Shown here in pieces: positions 1-9,035 of a stretch of DNA of 64,000 nt (positions are counted from its first letter, which is position 1; each line of letters opens with the position of its first letter). This DNA comes from Leptolyngbya sp. Prado105. Lineage in GTDB: Bacteria; Cyanobacteriota; Cyanobacteriia; Leptolyngbyales; Leptolyngbyaceae. The position numbers and the translations under genes were made by a program. Location of the stretch: assembly GCA_025454375.1 (NCBI GenBank), contig JALOOO010000007.1:908-64907 (forward strand), read 5' to 3'. Below the pieces are notes generated by a model. The model was not told where the DNA came from. It was given only the letters and a program-made list of their open reading frames with translations, and made no database searches.

Positions 1-1618
1 GTGCCGCTTGTTGTTTTGCATCTTTCTCTTTTTGCTGTGCTTGTTGATATTGCTGCTGCGCTGTTTTTTCCTTTTCCTGGGTTTGAGTCAGTCGCTCTGT
101 CAATTGTTGACTCTCGATCGCTAACCCGTCTTTCTGTTTCCTAGTTTCCTGCATTTCCGTTTCTGCTGTCTTACGAGCGTCCTCTGCCCGAAATGAACTC
201 GGAACCGCGATCGCTGCCACCCCAACCGCCCCCACAATCCCCATCAAACTGATCAAATTCCGCCGATTCGCCTTCCGAGTCGCTGTTGCTAACTCTTGTT
301 CCGCCTTCTCCCGCGCCTCCGTCAAAATCTGATTCGCCTCCTGCTCAGCAGCAAGCGATCGCTGATTTGCTTCTAGGGCTTCTCGTTGTTCCAAATCCAC
401 TGAATTCTGAATAAATAGCACTTCTTCTTGTGCCAACCGAGGCTGTCGCATTGTCCATTCTCTTGCCTCGCTCAAAGCTTGCCCCCGCAGCAGTCGAGAA
501 TCATCACGATCGCGCTCCCAAGCCAACAACTGTTCCGAAAACGGTCGCAGCTTCTCCATCTCCCGCCGCACCCATTCCGCATCAAACCGCGTCTGATAAA
601 TCCGGTTATACCCCCGCAGCACACCCTCTCGCAGCACCACTAACCCACTCAACCGCAGCGCCAACTGCTCTGGTGCATCCTCCGCCTCAATCTCTCCCCG
701 CCGCAAAATCTCCTGATAAATTCCCAACCGCTCCCGTCGCTGCTGCTCAGAACATTGCAAAACTCGATCGCGAATCGTCCGCAAATGCGCCTGTTCATCG
801 ATCGCCTTCGCATCCAAAATCTGCGTCTCAATCAAACCTTGAACATCCGTCGAACCATTCTCAACGACTAACTTACACACCCGCTGCGTCAAAAACGGCT
901 GCCCGCCCGTCCAAGCCAAAATCTCTGGCATCACCCCCGCTGCACTTCCTAATCCCGCAGCTAACGGAGCCACCTCCGCCTCAGTAAACCCCGTTAAATC
1001 GATCGCCCGACCAATATTAAACGGCGTGCGCGTCTTATCCTGAATCAACTCCGAAGGAGTCGCCACGCCAAACAACGCAAACGTCACCCGCTCATACTGC
1101 GGCTGATCCACCCGCAAGTTATAGCAAGCCCGAATAAACGCAAAAAAATCATCAATGGGAAACTTCAAACTCAGCACACTATCGATCTCATCCACAAAGA
1201 TCGCAATATTGCCCGCAAGCTCATCAAGTAACCAAACAATCAACAACCCCAACCGCTCCACAGGCGGCAAAAAATCCTGCTCCTTCCACCAACTTCGCAA
1301 CTTAAAGCGATCGCTCAATCCCAACCCACTCAAAAGCTGCCGCGCCACTCCCGCATACCACTGCTCAACCGTCGTACTCTGACTGCCAATTGCCGTAATT
1401 TCGATCGCCGCACAAGCCACCCCCTCTGCTTGCAGCCTTTGCATCGTCCTCATCCGCAAACTCGACTTCCCCATCTGCCGCGAATTCAGCACATAGCAAA
1501 ACTCCCCCGCCTTCAGACCCGCATACAGTTCTGCATCCGCCTGCCGCGTCACATAAGCCGGACTATCCCCCGGCAACGTCCCCCCAACCTGATAAAAACT
1601 AGAATTTGGCATCGTCAT
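1..1618 (-). CDS. AAA_35 (AAA-like/STAND-type) ATPase with TM helix and coiled coil; partial, continues off the left edge (homologues often end in WD40 repeats)
   Basis: Not in ORF track. Minus-strand translation from ATG 1618: [53 protein letters not shown] (Walker A-like), IFVDEID (Walker B), hydrophobic [20 protein letters not shown] (about 200-259), then a Q/E/K-rich coiled coil. The segments read at both ends are in the same frame. Start overlaps the upstream stop (ATGA). Confidence 0.9.
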
Positions 1619-2244
1619 GACTGCGATCGCTCCATCTGTGACACTACCCATCCCAAGTGCTTCATAATTTTCAGCACTCGTCCAATATCCTCCTGATTTC
1701 TCAAGTAAAAATCATCTGATTCTGCATACTCCTGACCCAGCACTTTAATGAACCGAAAATTAATGCCATTCGTCACTAAACCGAATGTCGGTTGACCTGC
1801 CACTGGATTTGCCAGCATGTAAGTCAAAGCTTGGGGTTTCGCCGCTTCCAAAGAAAACGTATTCCGTTTCGACTCCACAACTAGCACCCAAAGCTGTCGA
1901 TGTAACACTAAAACATCGATCACACCTCGATAAACCTTGCCCGCGTCTGTTGCTTGGATCTTGATCGTCTTCTCTGCACTGATCCGAAAAGGCTTACGAT
2001 AAAATCCAGCCAGTGAAAGTAAGGGAGAGAGTACAACCATCTTGACCGCATTCTCATGCATGACCTCTTCGCTCTGGTCGAGATAGTTCATCTGAATCTC
2101 TGTCAGTGCAGTTTGCTCCGCTGCACTTAATTCTGGCAATCCGACTTGCCACTCTAAGAAAAAATCGGCTGCTTGAGTCAACCGTAACCCAAACTGCTCA
2201 TGCACCTCGCGCAACGTTAAATCCCGAATCTGAGTCGCTGTCAT
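1615..2244 (-). CDS. HsdR N-terminal-like PD-(D/E)xK nuclease-fold protein
   Basis: Motif GVIDVLV...LVVESKR; [10 protein letters not shown] matches the cyanobacterial 'restriction endonuclease subunit R' family. ATG 2244 has GGAGGA 7 nt upstream (track start 2259). Confidence 0.75.
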
Positions 2245-2274
2245 CGCCTTATCCTCCATCCCTTTCAGTCAACC

Positions 2275-3861
2275 TTATGCCGATCGTAAGCGATCGCGAA
2301 AATACGCCCGATACAACTCACTGCGAAACTGCACATCATTCCCCAGCAGATCCACTAAGCCCATACTATGTAACTGAAACCCCTGCACCGAAGGCAGTCG
2401 CACCGTTCCTTCTGTCGCCACTAACTGCCGAACGGCTGCCGCCAACTCCGGATGCTGTTCTAAATTCCACAAATGCCGTCGTAAATGATCCCCATACAAT
2501 CCCGACTCCGTTGGCGCATTCCGCAGCAATGTTTCGAGCGTCGTATTCTCTCGCTTAACGTGATACAACGCCAACCGAACCAAGTAAGGATGTCCCCCCA
2601 CCATGCCCATCAATCGCCCAATCTGAGAAGTATTCCAGTTCAAGCCATGTCGCCTAGCTAAGTCCTGCACCTGATCCGCCGTGAATTCTAGAAGCTCGAT
2701 CGGTAAGCCCACATTAAACGGCGACTGATTGATATTCATCGGAATATACACTTCCGTCGAATGCACCACCACTAGGCGAAACCGCTTCCAAAGATCGCTA
2801 CTTTTTCCCATCTCATGCCAATTTCGCAGCAGTCCAAAGAAATCTGATGCGATCGACAAATGCTGAAACACCATGTCCACTTCATCCAGACAGAGTGCTA
2901 AAGGCTGATCTAAAGCAGGCAGTAAATACTCCTCAAAATAGGCTGTGCAATTATCCTTACTTCCAAATACCTCATCCCAATACTCATTCAACCGATTTGG
3001 AACTTTTAACCGCCGCCCCACACTTGCCGCAAACCAGCGCAAAAACTGATCCAAATCCCCAAACACAACTGAATCCGCCACCTGAAAACTCAAGGGCACA
3101 CCCAAACATCCTTGCTGTTCTGCATAGCGTAAAATTCTTGCCATCAGCGAAGTCTTGCCCATCTGCCTCGGCGCTTTGATCCGAATCAACGCCCCTGGAG
3201 TGACGATCGCTTCATAACACTGCGCCTCAATCTTGCCCCGCTCCACATAAAACCGTGATGCCAAATCGACCTGTCCCCCCGGCAATTCTGGCTCTGCCAC
3301 AGGTAAAGGCGGCATTTGCACCGATTCTTGCTGCGCGAACTCTTCCGCGATCGTCGGTGAATACAGTTCTTCGAGAGGGTCAAGCGGTTGCTCAACTTTC
3401 CCTTCGCTGAGCAGCGCTAAAATCTCCGCCAAAATTTCAGCAGTATCTTCAACCGTCTGCCATTGCCGTTGCTGAATCCGTTGCTGATAGCCGCGTAAAT
3501 CATAATTTAATGGAGCAGAAATCGGAAAATTCAGCCGAATCGGTAAAATCGTCGGCTTTCCAGTCTGATCGTGCAGTTGTTTTGCCCGTCTGACTTCTTC
3601 TGTGACCATTTCGCTCACGGACGATCGCTCTGACAGCAGCAGCAGAAAATAATCACACTGCAACAGTTCTGCATCAATTCGCTTCGCCCAATCTTCCCCA
3701 AGCCGAATACTTTCCCCTGCCATAAAGGTGCTGTACCCAGCCTCTTCCAGCCCATGATGAAACTCTTGCGCCAAACTCATGTCTGGGTCTTGGCTGCGGT
3801 AGCTAATAAATACTTTGACTTGAGAAAGTGTTGCCTTTTTCTTTTGCGGTGTTCGACTCAT
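2275..3861 (-). CDS. TIR domain + AAA_35 ATPase protein
   Basis: N-terminal VFISYRS...CDYFLLLLSERSSVSEMVTEEV (TIR_2-like); APRQMGKTS Walker A; LCLDEVD Walker B; HSTEVY and GGHPYL motifs typical of AAA_35. Confidence 0.9.
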   Translation of the reverse strand: MSRTPQKKKATLSQVKVFISYRSQDPDMSLAQEFHHGLEEAGYSTFMAGESIRLGEDWAKRIDAELLQCDYFLLLLSERSSVSEMVTEEVRRAKQLHDQTGKPTILPIRLNFPISAPLNYDLRGYQQRIQQRQWQTVEDTAEILAEILALLSEGKVEQPLDPLEELYSPTIAEEFAQQESVQMPPLPVAEPELPGGQVDLASRFYVERGKIEAQCYEAIVTPGALIRIKAPRQMGKTSLMARILRYAEQQGCLGVPLSFQVADSVVFGDLDQFLRWFAASVGRRLKVPNRLNEYWDEVFGSKDNCTAYFEEYLLPALDQPLALCLDEVDMVFQHLSIASDFFGLLRNWHEMGKSSDLWKRFRLVVVHSTEVYIPMNINQSPFNVGLPIELLEFTADQVQDLARRHGLNWNTSQIGRLMGMVGGHPYLVRLALYHVKRENTTLETLLRNAPTESGLYGDHLRRHLWNLEQHPELAAAVRQLVATEGTVRLPSVQGFQLHSMGLVDLLGNDVQFRSELYRAYFRDRLRSA

Positions 3862-4058
3862 CACTCAGAACCGGGGATATTCCTTTTCTCAGAATAATGA
3901 CTTTTCCTGATTCAGTCGAATAAAGCACGCAAGAGTTAATTTTTTAGCGTGCCTGCACTCCTTGAGCGATCGATTGATGAGCTTGGACTTCCGCAGCGGG
4001 AATGGAACCGACTTCACGATAACAATTCAGTTGATGAAAATTTATGGCGATACAATCG

Positions 4059-5323: not shown

Positions 5324-6460
5324 CTAAAGAATCGGAGTGGAATACAACTGTTGGTGAATTTCAAAGCCCCGGCTTTGCATTGCGGCTTCAAACATCGGAG
5401 TGGTTAAGGCTTGCTCTGGTGTCCAAACTCCAGACTGCTTAAGATCACCGGATAGTAGAAGTTGCGCGATCGTTCCCGTACCCACTCCCGCCGCTCTAGC
5501 CGTATTTGGATGAAACAAAGTAGAACGACACTGCACCAGTTGCCCATATTTCAACCCGATGACTTCGGATCGAATCGCAACCCCTACGCCACTCAGGAGA
5601 TCGCTGAACCGTGTCATTGCAAAACTTAAGTGTGACAAAAACTCAATCACTCGGTTCGATTGCAGCAACCGAGGATGCCACCGTGCCACACCCCAAGTGA
5701 GATAGTTATAAAAGCGCGGAACCGAACCAAATTTTGTCACGACTGTTCTGACCGGAAATGTATCCGCTAGGGTGAACAATTCTGGCAGATCAAACCAATA
5801 CACGCCTACTTTGCCATAGTGTGGAAACTCAATGACTTCGCGTTTGCTATACGGCTTGACTTGCTCCTGTTTTCCATTGATCTGGGCTTCAAACGGACGC
5901 TGCAACCCTAGAAAAGTAGATCGCATCACCGTTAATCCAGCTCCTCCAGAACCTCCAACCACATAGCTCAGATGAATTTTATGAGCTTGATCAAGTTGTT
6001 CGACATCTCGCCGCACCATACTATTCGAGATTCCTGGAAAAATTCCAGTGTTGAGAATCGCGGTGATGCCTGCGGTTGCCGCTTTTGACTTCAACGCGAT
6101 CGCTTTGCAAGTAAATGAAGGATGATCACTGACATCGACATAGTTTACGCCCGCATCAATGCAAAGCTTCAGAACAATTGCATTGCGATGATGAAAGGGT
6201 CCTGCACAGTGAATAACCAGATCAGATTGTGCGATCTGATCCTGTAGAGCTATCCAATCATCCAAGTAGAGCGGAATGAATCGACAGCGATGAGAACCTG
6301 CTTCCTGTATGGAATGTGTCAACTCTTGGAGCGCTTTTCGCCCCGCTGCTAAATTGCGTCCTGCGATCGTGATTTTAGCTGATGTGTGCTTCAGCAAGTC
6401 TGCGGCAACATTGCGCCCAATACGACCACTTCCACCCAAAATGAGTACGTGTTGTGTCAT
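5324..6460 (-). CDS. Saccharopine dehydrogenase-like NAD(P)-binding oxidoreductase
   Basis: GGSGRIG Rossmann motif, HCAGPF, YVDVSD, NTGIFPGISN. Start placed at MTQHVLILGG (track start 6481). Confidence 0.85.
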   Translation of the reverse strand: MTQHVLILGGSGRIGRNVAADLLKHTSAKITIAGRNLAAGRKALQELTHSIQEAGSHRCRFIPLYLDDWIALQDQIAQSDLVIHCAGPFHHRNAIVLKLCIDAGVNYVDVSDHPSFTCKAIALKSKAATAGITAILNTGIFPGISNSMVRRDVEQLDQAHKIHLSYVVGGSGGAGLTVMRSTFLGLQRPFEAQINGKQEQVKPYSKREVIEFPHYGKVGVYWFDLPELFTLADTFPVRTVVTKFGSVPRFYNYLTWGVARWHPRLLQSNRVIEFLSHLSFAMTRFSDLLSGVGVAIRSEVIGLKYGQLVQCRSTLFHPNTARAAGVGTGTIAQLLLSGDLKQSGVWTPEQALTTPMFEAAMQSRGFEIHQQLYSTPIL

Positions 6461-6544
6461 TTTTTTCCGAAATTTAGACAATAAATTGGTACTTGAAGCG
6501 AGTAAGAAACGGCTTCAAGTCTATGAATTCTGAGAATCTCCTGA

Positions 6545-6784
6545 CTATGCTGCTCTCTGAATTTGGTTGATTGCTCGATCGCTAAAAAACAAAGTGCTGG
6601 ATATCGGTGGTCGAGCCTGATCAAGTTCGATGAGGGAGGAATCGATCCATTCCAACAACGACAAAATAGCAAGCACTAGCAGTACTGAAATCACAGCAGT
6701 AATCTGCCAACGTGATATCCAGCGAATTAGCAAACGCAACCGTGACTGCGCAGATTGAACCGTGCAGCAATTAAAGTTCATCAT
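6545..6784 (-). CDS. Hypothetical small single-TM protein
   Basis: One hydrophobic segment (ITAVISVLLVLAILSLL); no recognisable family; start uncertain. Confidence 0.4.
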   Translation of the reverse strand: MMNFNCCTVQSAQSRLRLLIRWISRWQITAVISVLLVLAILSLLEWIDSSLIELDQARPPISSTLFFSDRAINQIQRAA

Positions 6785-7310
6785 GATGAAGATGCCTAAC
6801 TTAAGCCGAATTGAACCAAGCGGAAATAGCACAACTGAAGCGACATTCAAATCTACGCGAATCAGTTGCCACAAGGCTTTGGCTTAGATTGAAGAAATGA
6901 TTTAACGAAGACAAAACTTGGCTAAACGAACACCGCGAACCAGCAAGATTTGCCTTAACGAAGCGAGAGCAGCTTTTGCTTGACGGTTCTTTCCCAGTGC
7001 CGAGCCGTAAAATGGTCAGGTTTTGAGTTGACAGCAGTGCTTGAATTTTGCTTCAAACATCGGTGAACATCAGCATTCATGTCCTTAAGGGTTATAGTTT
7101 TGACTTTGAGGTAAACATTCTTAACATACCACATTACTGTCAAAAAGCAACCTTTTTTCGGCAAGTCTTTAGCTCAATCGAAGGATTTTGACAGGTAGGG
7201 CAGAAAGTAACTCGAAGACCCCGCCGAGAGTAAGAAACCCAAAACATTTATATGTTTCAACGGCAAAACTTTGATCAAATGACGAATTACCCCCTAGACA
7301 GGCATCATCC

Positions 7311-9035
7311 CTAGCTCCCCGGCTTCAAATAATCCAACAATCGATCGCCCGAATCTGCTCTGACCAATCCCACCGCAATATCCGGCAACACTCGCCGACT
7401 CGGAAACACCAAATAGCGCGGCTCCCACCTCGGGCGAAACTTCTCCTTAAACTGATGCAATCCCTTAAAGTTATAAAACTGATTCAAATGCTCAAAGAAG
7501 TAATGCAATCCCTTCTCCACCCGCTGAGCATCTGCCGCCTCTCCCACCCCAGCTAAAGGCGACAAACTAAAATTAAAACTGTCATACCCCTCTTGCTGAA
7601 AATGCTTTAGCATCTCTGCAAACAGAAAATCCATCGTGCCTTTCTCAGCGCGATCGACATGTCGCATCAAATCCACAGTTACTTCCTTGCGATTGTAGCC
7701 AGAAAGTAAATTAGAAAACGCGATCGCGTCTCCATTGCCATCTTCAATCACGGCAATATGGCATCCTTTCAAATACTCAGGATTAAACCAGCCGATCGAA
7801 AACTGCTTTTCTGAACCTTGCTTTGACTTTAACCATTCATCACTCACGGGTTTGAGTCTTGCAATTAAGCGATCGTCGATCGGAGGAGCATAAACCTGAA
7901 GCTGATACCCCGCTTTTGAGAGCTTATTAATTGCGGTTCTAAAGTCTTGATTTGCTTTTCCTTTCAAGTTAAAAGTACGCAGATCAATGATTGCTTCTTC
8001 GCCAATCTGTACCCAGCGGTAGCCTAAAGACTGATAGAGCGGCAATGTCTCAGGTAGCACTTCGTAAAATGTCGGAAACCAATCATTTTGATGGCAAAAC
8101 TCTCGAAAGCTCACAATTGCTTCTTTACGATCGTCACTGTGCCCGATCGGATCGCCCAAAGTAATCGCAGCCCGACCCTTTGCAACATAGGCAATCACGC
8201 TTTTACCGGATGGGCTAAAGTAGTAAGACTTGTCGGGGAGTAACGACAATCGAGCGAGCGAAGTCTGACCATACTCATCAATAATCTGACGAGCTTTCTT
8301 ACGATCGAATAACGTTGCGGGATCACCTCGGAGTAACACCGGACGCAGCAACATCAACAAGGCATAAGTCATCGTGACTAACCCGACCGCATAGATCGAA
8401 TGGGCAAAGAAATCGCCATAGCGTCTAGATGGCTCTAACCCAGCATTATCTGCTGTAAAAAACATCGCAAGCGTCTGCCAAATCGCCTGCTTGAAACTGA
8501 AATTAATCGGCTGTCCACTGACCTTAAAGTAACCATCGAGCCAATAAAACCCGATCGTGCCGTAAGCCAAAGTAAATAGAATTGCAACAACTAGCGCTCG
8601 AATCCCTTGCGCGATCGAAGGCGGATCGGATTTTGCCGTATAAACCTTTCTCAAGACAATCAGTTGAATCAATAAAATCATTGCTAAAGTACTTTCTTCA
8701 ATATCAAAGCCTTTAATCAAATGGCTCAAAATTGACAGAATGAGCAATCCAACGGTGAGGTACCAAGCCACCTTTTTTCGTCTGAGTAAATTCGCAGCTA
8801 AAGTTAGTAAAATAAACCCGGATAATGCCGCAAATAAATGTCCTCCAGCCCGAACCGAGAAGGGCAGAAAATGCTTCAGCCAAGCCGTCCGCTCAGGATA
8901 GCTCGGCGCGATCGCAGAAATCAAATTCACCCCTCCCATCACAGCCGTCAAGATCGCGGTCGATCCAATCCCGAAGCGAGTTTTGCGATCGACATTTCCC
9001 TCAATAGTTTTACGGCTTGAAAAGAACTGCTGCAT
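7311..9035 (-). CDS. mprF: Aminoacyl-phosphatidylglycerol synthase, MprF/LPG_synthase_C (DUF2156) family, short membrane domain
   Basis: About 6 TM helices then a cytosolic domain with DKSYYF, GDPIG, GEEAIIDL, FSIGWF, VDLMRH, FYNFKGL..FKEKFRPRWEPRYL. ATG 9035 lies 4 nt after the esterase stop. Confidence 0.85.
   Translation of the reverse strand: MQQFFSSRKTIEGNVDRKTRFGIGSTAILTAVMGGVNLISAIAPSYPERTAWLKHFLPFSVRAGGHLFAALSGFILLTLAANLLRRKKVAWYLTVGLLILSILSHLIKGFDIEESTLAMILLIQLIVLRKVYTAKSDPPSIAQGIRALVVAILFTLAYGTIGFYWLDGYFKVSGQPINFSFKQAIWQTLAMFFTADNAGLEPSRRYGDFFAHSIYAVGLVTMTYALLMLLRPVLLRGDPATLFDRKKARQIIDEYGQTSLARLSLLPDKSYYFSPSGKSVIAYVAKGRAAITLGDPIGHSDDRKEAIVSFREFCHQNDWFPTFYEVLPETLPLYQSLGYRWVQIGEEAIIDLRTFNLKGKANQDFRTAINKLSKAGYQLQVYAPPIDDRLIARLKPVSDEWLKSKQGSEKQFSIGWFNPEYLKGCHIAVIEDGNGDAIAFSNLLSGYNRKEVTVDLMRHVDRAEKGTMDFLFAEMLKHFQQEGYDSFNFSLSPLAGVGEAADAQRVEKGLHYFFEHLNQFYNFKGLHQFKEKFRPRWEPRYLVFPSRRVLPDIAVGLVRADSGDRLLDYLKPGS

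Follow-up and report, generated by a model that had tools for sequence, protein, structure and literature searches.

In plant receptors of the RPP1/ROQ1 type, which belong to the TIR-bearing nucleotide-binding leucine-rich repeat (TIR-NLR) class, the TIR domain lies directly N-terminal to a nucleotide-binding oligomerization module with helical and winged-helix domains. In sensor-helper NLR pairs such as NAIP-NLRC4, labor is split between a sensor and an executor protein, each with a nucleotide-binding oligomerization domain (NOD). In bacteria, the predicted nSTAND2 systems consist of two adjacent paralogous STAND NTPase genes, for whose products hetero-oligomerization has been proposed; in one of the two the NTP-binding motifs are eroded, and this partner bears the GT4 or HEPN effectors. 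Such systems have a predicted role against invaders, with enrichment in multicellular bacteria (Kaur, Iyer, Burroughs, and Aravind 2021, PMC8195603). Here we describe a locus in a 64,000-nucleotide stretch of DNA from the cyanobacterium Leptolyngbya sp. Prado105 (contig JALOOO010000007.1, positions 908 to 64,907; hereafter the window). Its first 3.9 kb contain three co-oriented minus-strand genes in the order A (TIR-AAA_35), N (nuclease), and B (AAA_35, transmembrane helix, coiled coil). Gene A resembles the plant receptors in placing a TIR domain directly before such a nucleotide-binding module, and A and B resemble NAIP-NLRC4 in the division of labor expected between them.

We interpret this locus as a split NLR-like cell-death or immunity system formed by A and B, accompanied by a facultative, co-expressed nuclease that is a passenger or accessory, and we give this interpretation a probability of roughly 45%. 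A first-pass annotation of the same DNA, made from the sequence alone, had taken all three genes together as a candidate NLR-like module. All features listed in that annotation are present in the sequence, with the order and orientation of the genes as given, and the A/B pair retains its STAND/NLR-like character through structural matches to RPP1, Apaf-1, and Avs4, but the trio is not a conserved unit. The genes and the signals between them are the following:

2275..3864, minus strand: gene A, the TIR-AAA_35 "executor", 529 amino acids (Pfam, AlphaFold2 model, Foldseek, conservation across 34 homologs)
2245..2274, minus strand: spacer of 30 nt between A and the nuclease (sequence; nuclease start set by homologs)
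2252-2257, minus strand: Shine-Dalgarno sequence GGAGGA, 7 nt before the nuclease ATG, overlapping an upstream in-frame ATG at 2257-2259
1615..2244, minus strand: nuclease N, a PD-(D/E)xK protein of HsdR-N/MmeI type, 209 amino acids from M6 (alignment, Pfam, PADLOC, profile against the PDB, AlphaFold2)
1..1618, minus strand: gene B, the AAA_35 "sensor" partner, first 539 of 810 codons (translation, Pfam, source contig)

The open reading frame (ORF) of the nuclease spans 1615..2259 on the minus strand, while its homologs begin at the sixth codon, M6 (ATG at 2244..2242). Counted from the first ATG the gap to gene A is 15 nt, and counted from M6 it is the 30 nt, with a strong Shine-Dalgarno sequence, that the first-pass annotation had reported. 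The same annotation correctly placed the overlap between the nuclease stop and the next start: the TGA at 1617..1615 shares an ATGA (1618-1615) with the gene B ATG at 1618..1616. A second gene B ATG two codons on (1612..1610) matches the start of the relatives in the alignment. From this arrangement, the nuclease in the window is predicted to be co-transcribed with and translationally coupled to both neighbors. Gene B itself was absent from the ORF listing because it runs off the start of the window.

We examined two samples, consisting of 16 related pairs on the A side, which is a small sample since a metagenome scan with gene A gave only 16 loci, and the 80 best nuclease loci on the nuclease side. 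On the A side, only the window carries a nuclease, and it is absent between A and B in the other 15 of the 16 pairs. These nuclease-free pairs include the closest relatives of gene A, at loci L082 (84% identity), L083 (80%), and L086 (79%). B either overlaps the A stop codon or starts no more than 23 nt beyond it in L082, L083, L084, L086, L087, L089, L090, L098, L100, L111, L114, and L122, consistent with the earlier statement that adjacent AAA_35 gene pairs occur in filamentous cyanobacteria. On the nuclease side, the order A-N-B is found in about 22 of the 80 loci, in other cyanobacteria; these are a Nostocales group in which A has a small CHAT domain in place of TIR, plus L021 and L046/L066, where A has TIR. 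Roughly 58 of the 80 have no AAA_35 neighbor. The neighborhood survey that the first-pass annotation had called for recovers the arrangement repeatedly when it starts from the nuclease but once in 16 when it starts from A. Because B follows A without a nuclease in 15 of 16 pairs and most nucleases stand alone, these comparisons identify the A/B pair as the conserved unit and the trio as an infrequent variant, restricted to certain lineages, of a widespread two-gene system. The nuclease would accordingly rank as an optional, repeatedly acquired add-on and not as a core component.

Junctions can also hold other things. In L088 there is a non-coding, repeat-rich gap between A and B, and in L101 (821-2125) and L091 (7608-8351) TIR-type A and B are separated by opposite-strand genes, with an MTHFS-like protein of ~247 amino acids. 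The L101 junction additionally holds a gene for a 172-amino-acid macro-domain protein; macro domains bind or hydrolyze ADP-ribose, and one encoded next to TIR might regulate what the TIR domain produces. In Nostoc mirabile CHAB5784, a cultured strain with an A-N-B locus (L018), an ORF of tandem NPVQRW(I/M)HPVQRLV-type repeats (cluster c13, 5 loci) lies just upstream of the CHAT-AAA_35 gene (L018:5728-6099); it may not be a gene but non-coding DNA rich in repeats. A/B pairs are present on at least 39 cyanobacterial plasmids, and one A-type gene without an adjacent B adjoins NB-ARC, AIPR, and ATPase-DUF4276 genes.

The nuclease-free relatives L082, L083, and L086 allowed filled and empty junctions to be compared in both DNA and protein, and the edges of the insert were placed as follows:

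1617..2286, minus strand: inferred inserted segment of ~670 nt, comprising nuclease leader and ORF (comparison with the insert-free L082, L083, and L086)
2289-2296 and 1623-1630, at the two insert edges: HIP1 palindromes GCGATCGC (sequence)

The insert provides the last three codons of A and its stop (RSA, then stop) and ends where homology to the start of B in the relatives resumes. It carries the nuclease's own 5' leader, which is in common with that of a stand-alone copy, L115. The HIP1 palindromes lie within ~10 nt of both edges, and with 64 copies in the window, about 1 per kb, their position may be due to chance or may hint at recombination at HIP1 sites.

Phylogenetic analysis points to more than one such event. 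In a neighbor-joining tree of the nucleases, L002-L006 cluster with the window copy, at a large distance from the Nostocales junction clade, L021, and L046. In a tree of the A domains, the nuclease-bearing L001 (the source contig of the window) and L021 are nested separately among nuclease-free TIR pairs. This separate nesting, taken with the nuclease tree, shows that different nuclease clades entered the same A/B junction independently in at least two, and probably three or four, pair lineages. Chance does not account for so specific a recurrence at one junction. For the nuclease of the Nostocales trios, the median ratio of nonsynonymous to synonymous substitution rates (dN/dS) is 0.22 (78 pairs; dS up to ~1.1), which indicates that the junction nuclease there is under purifying selection.

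In L105-L107, whose nuclease is 69% identical to that of the window, a stop precedes a ~20-codon relic of the A 3' end (SELYRMYFRDRL), and an intact nuclease follows; behind it comes a 475-amino-acid B tail with the transmembrane helix and WD40 but without AAA_35. L108 has no B, and what is left of the A 3' end upstream of its nuclease is a degenerate stretch of DNA. A Nostoc locus, L022, has before an orphan nuclease an A relic, which scores 24.3 bits against a control maximum of 21.6; among the stand-alone copies searched for an upstream A relic, L022 alone exceeded the controls, and none was found in the relatives L102, L115, L116, and L119. Since the nuclease is intact where A, the NTPase part of B, or both have decayed, it appears from these loci to be independent of the pair and to outlive the decay of both ATPases. 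We also considered that the insertion might be unique and recent, and rejected this since L105-L107 and L108, which belong to the same nuclease clade, carry A 3' relics. The decayed trio at L105:1-2254 has 6 WD40 repeats in its B tail, and the contig ends just upstream, leaving the rest of A out of sight.

Gene A carries the predicted effector of the pair, and its domains and motifs are placed as follows:

3460-3813, minus strand: TIR domain (Pfam TIR_2)
3592-3615, minus strand: catalytic-Glu motif SEMVTEEV, residues 84-91 (invariant residues in homologs)
2296-3282, minus strand: AAA_35 domain (Pfam)
3148-3168, minus strand: Walker A, RQMGKTS (sequence motif)
2875-2889, minus strand: Walker B, LDEVD (sequence motif)

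TIR_2 is matched by residues 18-135 with 69.8 bits (Pfam cut-off 28) and AAA_35 (PF14516) by residues 195-523 with 486.3 bits (gathering cut-off 27). E89 and E90 are invariant across 34 homologs, in keeping with the glutamate that the first-pass annotation had picked out in SEMVTEEV. A sequence search of the PDB with the gene A protein gave only weak TIR matches. The AlphaFold2 model (mean predicted local distance difference test score, pLDDT, 76) shows a nucleotide-binding domain, a helical bundle, and a beta-hairpin winged helix, and its top PDB match in Foldseek is the tetramer of the plant TIR-NLR RPP1 (E = 1.5e-10). Taken alone, the AAA_35 part resembles the archaeal ATPases 2qen and 2fna, the origin recognition complex (ORC) subunit ORC2, Apaf-1, WRR4A, and Avs4, and the TIR part resembles SPARTA TIR-APAZ, AbTir, and SARM1, with template modeling scores of 0.7-0.8 against AbTir and SARM1. 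From these structural matches of the model, AAA_35 can be classed as a nucleotide-binding module of STAND/ORC type that includes helical and winged-helix domains.

The gene A family is large, with more than 7,564 homologs at E < 1e-10 and identities of 63-88% across orders of cyanobacteria. Its TIR-AAA_35 core does not vary, and CHAT, trypsin, caspase, or cyclase domains often stand in front of it; the trypsin-type A genes have a Trypco1 gene upstream. The Walker A motif is present in 32 of 40 A ORFs. Judged as a STAND/NLR-like protein, the pair has the Walker A and B motifs and the helical and winged-helix domains, but effector, NOD, and sensor are not united in one polypeptide because the TIR domain is on A and the sensor repeats are on B.

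Gene B continues beyond the window, where the source contig completes a protein of 810 amino acids. The parts of it that lie in the window are:

584-1582, minus strand: AAA_35 domain (Pfam)
1460-1480, minus strand: Walker A, RQMGKSS (sequence motif)
1181-1195, minus strand: Walker B, VDEID (sequence motif)
188-256, minus strand: predicted N-in transmembrane helix, residues 455-477 (transmembrane scan)
1-187, minus strand: coiled-coil-like Q/A-rich region that continues off the window (composition and heptad check)

The AAA_35 domain of B (residues 13-345) scores 90.7 bits against the same gathering cut-off, and the AAA_35 proteins A and B are paralogs with 25% identity (E = 6e-13). Both carry the RQMGK(T/S)S and DE motifs that had been noticed in the first pass, and none of 31 B proteins has lost Walker A or B. 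The hydrophobic helix has a basic N-terminal flank (RKANRRN) and is followed by ~160-230 amino acids that are Q/A/K/E-rich, proline-free, and heptad-like in their hydrophobic spacing. A membrane anchor on the second ATPase had been proposed before, and such a helix is predicted in 26 of 31 B proteins whatever their sensor type, ~100 residues past the AAA_35 domain at residues 451-499 and with a basic N-flank. By the positive-inside rule, the NTPase of B is predicted to be cytoplasmic and the sensor to lie outside the cytoplasm.

The C-termini of B proteins differ and include WD40, PD40, TPR, HisKA-HATPase, and WD40 with Amidase_3. In the window copy, the off-window C-terminus, which the first-pass annotation had wanted read for WD40 or TPR sensors, has just one WD40 repeat, followed by a short cap. 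This blade (L001:12760-13074) can be aligned with the first blade of the ~7-bladed propeller of L083 as well as with its last blade plus cap, which suggests that the propeller collapsed in frame by recombination between repeats. The sensor of this copy may be defective or may need oligomerization to build a propeller. On plasmid pNsp_e of Nostoc sp. ATCC 53789 (L111:7046-11374), B consists of AAA_35, a transmembrane helix, ~12 WD40 repeats, and a C-terminal Amidase_3, an N-acetylmuramoyl-L-alanine amidase that ties the sensor arm to peptidoglycan; its A partner is a trypsin-TIR-AAA_35 protein with a Trypco1 gene upstream. A periplasmic-type peptidoglycan amidase at the C-terminus of this one plasmid-borne B fits a C-out topology.

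The nuclease is assigned from its sequence and its model to the PD-(D/E)xK proteins of HsdR-N/MmeI type, whose catalytic motif and core it has. Its conserved residues, all identified in the family alignment, are encoded at:

2053-2055, minus strand: E69
1915-1917, minus strand: D115
1873-1875, minus strand: E129
1867-1869, minus strand: K131
1819-1833, minus strand: QxxxY

The invariant set comprises E69, D115, E129-x-K131, Q143-xxx-Y147, and an NG motif. QxxxY is a hallmark of the RecB family. The protein scores 23.9 bits against HSDR_N (PF04313), short of the Pfam cut-off of 25.1, and many homologs carry a precomputed PF04313 match; a PADLOC model of a Cas-associated PD_DExK protein matches it with E = 4e-7. 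A profile of the family aligns D..ExK..QxxxY..NG in register with MmeI (E = 0.014) and the HsdR subunit of EcoR124I (E = 0.07). The AlphaFold2 model (pLDDT 84) has an alpha-beta-beta-beta-alpha-beta core after an N-terminal helical region. Foldseek searches with this model returned only weak, long-rmsd (root-mean-square deviation) matches to mitoribosomal proteins, which we judged uninformative.

The nuclease family is cyanobacterial and multi-copy, with more than 586 confirmed genomic loci and 167, 626, or 1,213 clusters at 50% identity for E-value thresholds of 1e-30, 1e-10, and 1e-3, respectively. It is found on 30 plasmid records, and no homolog was found in phage genomes. Fusions to AAA_35 or other domains were not seen among the 150 best representatives, all of at most 317 amino acids, and BLASTP detected no adaptor or similarity common to the nuclease and A or B. 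Stand-alone copies neighbor genes for CTP synthase, a class-V aminotransferase, ABC transporters, ROK, and AhpC, and this synteny is kept among Nostocales. In Nostoc loci L009, L048, L072 (~6500-8600), and L022 (~6200-8300) the nuclease follows not an AAA_35 gene but a Ser/Thr kinase with C-terminal membrane helices, and the same kind of kinase is encoded two genes upstream of A in Nostoc A-N-B trios. Genes for Uma2 (DUF820) putative endonucleases, a further PD-(D/E)xK family with many copies in cyanobacteria, turn up repeatedly in the neighborhood of AAA_35 pairs and of stand-alone nucleases (L082:1-2381, L083:13683-16028, L108:3098-3748).

If A and B work as this architecture suggests, B would be a single-pass membrane protein with its AAA_35 module in the cytoplasm; a coiled-coil stalk and the repeat sensor, reduced in this copy to a WD40 remnant, would lie across the membrane. 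A would be a soluble paralogous AAA_35 module bearing the TIR effector. A cue sensed by B would cause ATP-dependent co-oligomerization of B with A, and this co-assembly would gather the TIR domains and lead to NAD+ cleavage or TIR signaling, so that the affected cell stops growing or dies. The nuclease belongs to an autonomous multi-copy cyanobacterial family and was inserted precisely at the A/B junction with its own leader. Most likely it contributes a second, facultative and co-expressed activity, that of a DNase, which is dispensable for the pair and does not itself need the pair.

Several observations weigh against this interpretation. Conservation of gene A across orders is unusually high for an immune gene. 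No match to a catalogued defense system emerged, as the PADLOC models of Avs/bNACHT and other systems gave only TIR-domain matches for A and none for B, and neither PADLOC nor NCBIfam system models fit beyond the TIR domain. No paper on PF14516/AAA_35 pairs or on the nuclease family was found under these names. The topology of B is derived from hydrophobicity and the positive-inside rule alone, and with B down to one WD40 blade the window copy may be sensor-defective or partly decayed. The repeated insertions (at least three) and the tight coupling are equally compatible with a partnership and with a selfish target-site preference; these two explain the recurrence at the junction about equally well, and sequence data cannot separate them. 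On the partnership side, the nuclease could be an integral third component, an effector that the A/B complex retains or activates, comparable to the gating of nucleases by ATPase scaffolds in PARIS or Septu, such that sensing leads to NAD+ depletion together with DNA cleavage. This comes close to the extra effector of the first-pass annotation, and what remains of that proposal is the independent recurrence of same-strand, same-position insertions (the window, L021, L046/L066, and the Nostocales CHAT-type pairs), the purifying selection on junction nucleases, and the translational coupling of the window copy on both sides; PD-(D/E)xK nucleases are moreover common defense effectors, and N matches the PADLOC PD_DExK model. 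An obligate role nevertheless seems unlikely for a protein that is missing from all but one of the A-side pairs, has no AAA_35 neighbor in most of its family, survives the loss of A and of the NTPase module of B, shows neither fusions to nor a common adaptor or similarity with A or B, and has no ligand-sensing domain. We are similarly skeptical of a more ambitious version, in which AAA_35 pairs are membrane-spanning split NLR-like receptors that detect cues from outside the cytoplasm and relay them inward, and the nuclease, recruited independently several times, is a third subunit so that both TIR NADase and DNase are gated, or in a variant a homing-type element specialized on an immune-operon junction.

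On the selfish side, N would be an opportunistic free-standing endonuclease without a role in the pair, which reaches its preferred site, the junction of the two strongly conserved AAA_35 coding sequences, by an intron-less, homing-like process or by recombination. Cyanobacteria do have PD-(D/E)xK homing endonucleases, such as I-Ssp6803I, and the precise, non-disruptive insertion between conserved genes, with its own leader, is what such an element would produce, as are the entry of different nuclease clades into the same site of different pair lineages and the scattered multi-copy distribution that includes plasmids. The junction also tolerates unrelated insertions (L088, L091, and L101), and HIP1 palindromes flank the insert, though sites that occur about once per kb may do so by chance. 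Many copies, however, sit in housekeeping synteny conserved across Nostocales, which is atypical of an actively mobile gene, the catalytic residues are invariant and purifying selection persists long after insertion, no A relic is detectable upstream of most stand-alone copies, and phage genomes have no matches, so that we think this explanation improbable as well. A different doubt concerns the pair itself, which might not be anti-phage and might instead serve envelope stress, kin recognition, or developmental death or signaling in filaments, with the nuclease incidental. The very high conservation of gene A, atypical of arms-race genes, would suit such a function, as would sensors predicted to be extracytoplasmic, B proteins with HisKA-HATPase or peptidoglycan amidase, the housekeeping neighbors of the window locus, and the enrichment in multicellular taxa, which matches themes of Kaur et al. 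(PMC7159879, PMC8195603). We regard it as quite unlikely, given that the effector sets (TIR, caspase/CHAT, trypsin with Trypco1) are those of predicted conflict systems, that the pairs occur on plasmids, where one A gene that has no B next to it adjoins NB-ARC, AIPR, and ATPase-DUF4276 genes, and that the diversification of B sensors resembles that of immune receptors. A split A/B system with a facultative nuclease remains the interpretation we prefer.

The neighbors of the locus on the 74-kb source contig are housekeeping genes (TerC, rhodanese, saccharopine dehydrogenase), a promoter and terminator scan gave nothing above chance, and the window sequence occurs in only one wetland DNA metagenome. 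On the plus strand, positions 430-987 hold a 185-amino-acid ORF antisense to the AAA_35 region of gene B; its translation is Pro/Ala-rich and of low complexity, and it is almost certainly no real gene.

AAA_35 pairs have thousands of homologs on chromosomes and plasmids, and few NLR-like modules of filamentous cyanobacteria are as abundant. Their effector and sensor arms are separate paralogous ATPases, with the sensor behind a transmembrane helix, which makes them a testable bacterial counterpart of sensor-helper NLR pairs. The repeated entry of a nuclease into the same operon junction, where it outlasts its hosts, is a natural experiment on accessory effectors versus selfish passengers. The value of the locus thus lies in an uncharacterized split transmembrane NLR-like pair combined with repeated nuclease capture.

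Among known systems, the nuclease compares most directly with the nuclease domain of HsdR (EcoR124I) and MmeI, with which it has in the same register D-x13-E-x-K-x11-Q-xxx-Y and then (S/T)NG; many members of its family are annotated as "HsdR N-terminal domain-containing protein". Unlike those enzymes it stands alone, without a helicase/translocase or methyltransferase domain, and the locus has no HsdM or HsdS genes, so that only the nuclease domain of a type I restriction-modification system is represented. With free-standing homing endonucleases it shares insertion between conserved genes and insert-free alleles in relatives. PARIS (AriA/AriB), Septu (PtuA/PtuB), and Gabija place the gene for an oligomeric ATPase beside that for a small nuclease that could be sequestered and released. 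The analogy to these is functional only, as their ATPase and nuclease families are unrelated to A, B, and N, and here the nuclease is missing from most A/B pairs and common without them.

Gene A has a TIR domain with a conserved catalytic Glu in common with Thoeris ThsB, SPARTA TIR-APAZ, AbTir, and TIR-STING, but the A/B locus is without a ThsA, SLOG, SIR2, Argonaute, or STING partner. For Thoeris in particular, the PADLOC ThsB match is E = 2e-4 and no ThsA-like gene is found among the neighbors, and in NCBIfam gene A reaches 33.6 bits for Thoeris ThcB4 (cut-off 220) and 27.3 for retron-TIR (cut-off 600). The Avs and bNACHT STAND proteins are single-chain and cytosolic, whereas A/B is split across two ATPases with a transmembrane helix. 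The nSTAND2 operon is the closest concept described so far and has two adjacent STAND genes in common with this locus. In contrast to nSTAND2, both A and B keep Walker A and B, and the effectors, which are TIR, CHAT, trypsin, and caspase, are on the repeat-free partner, a description that sets the two apart. Compared with the plant TIR-NLRs, AAA_35 is as near to the archaeal 2qen/2fna and ORC as to NB-ARC, A and B have no leucine-rich repeats, and their oligomerization and NADase activity are predicted ones; the sensor repeats are carried by the other polypeptide, behind a transmembrane helix.

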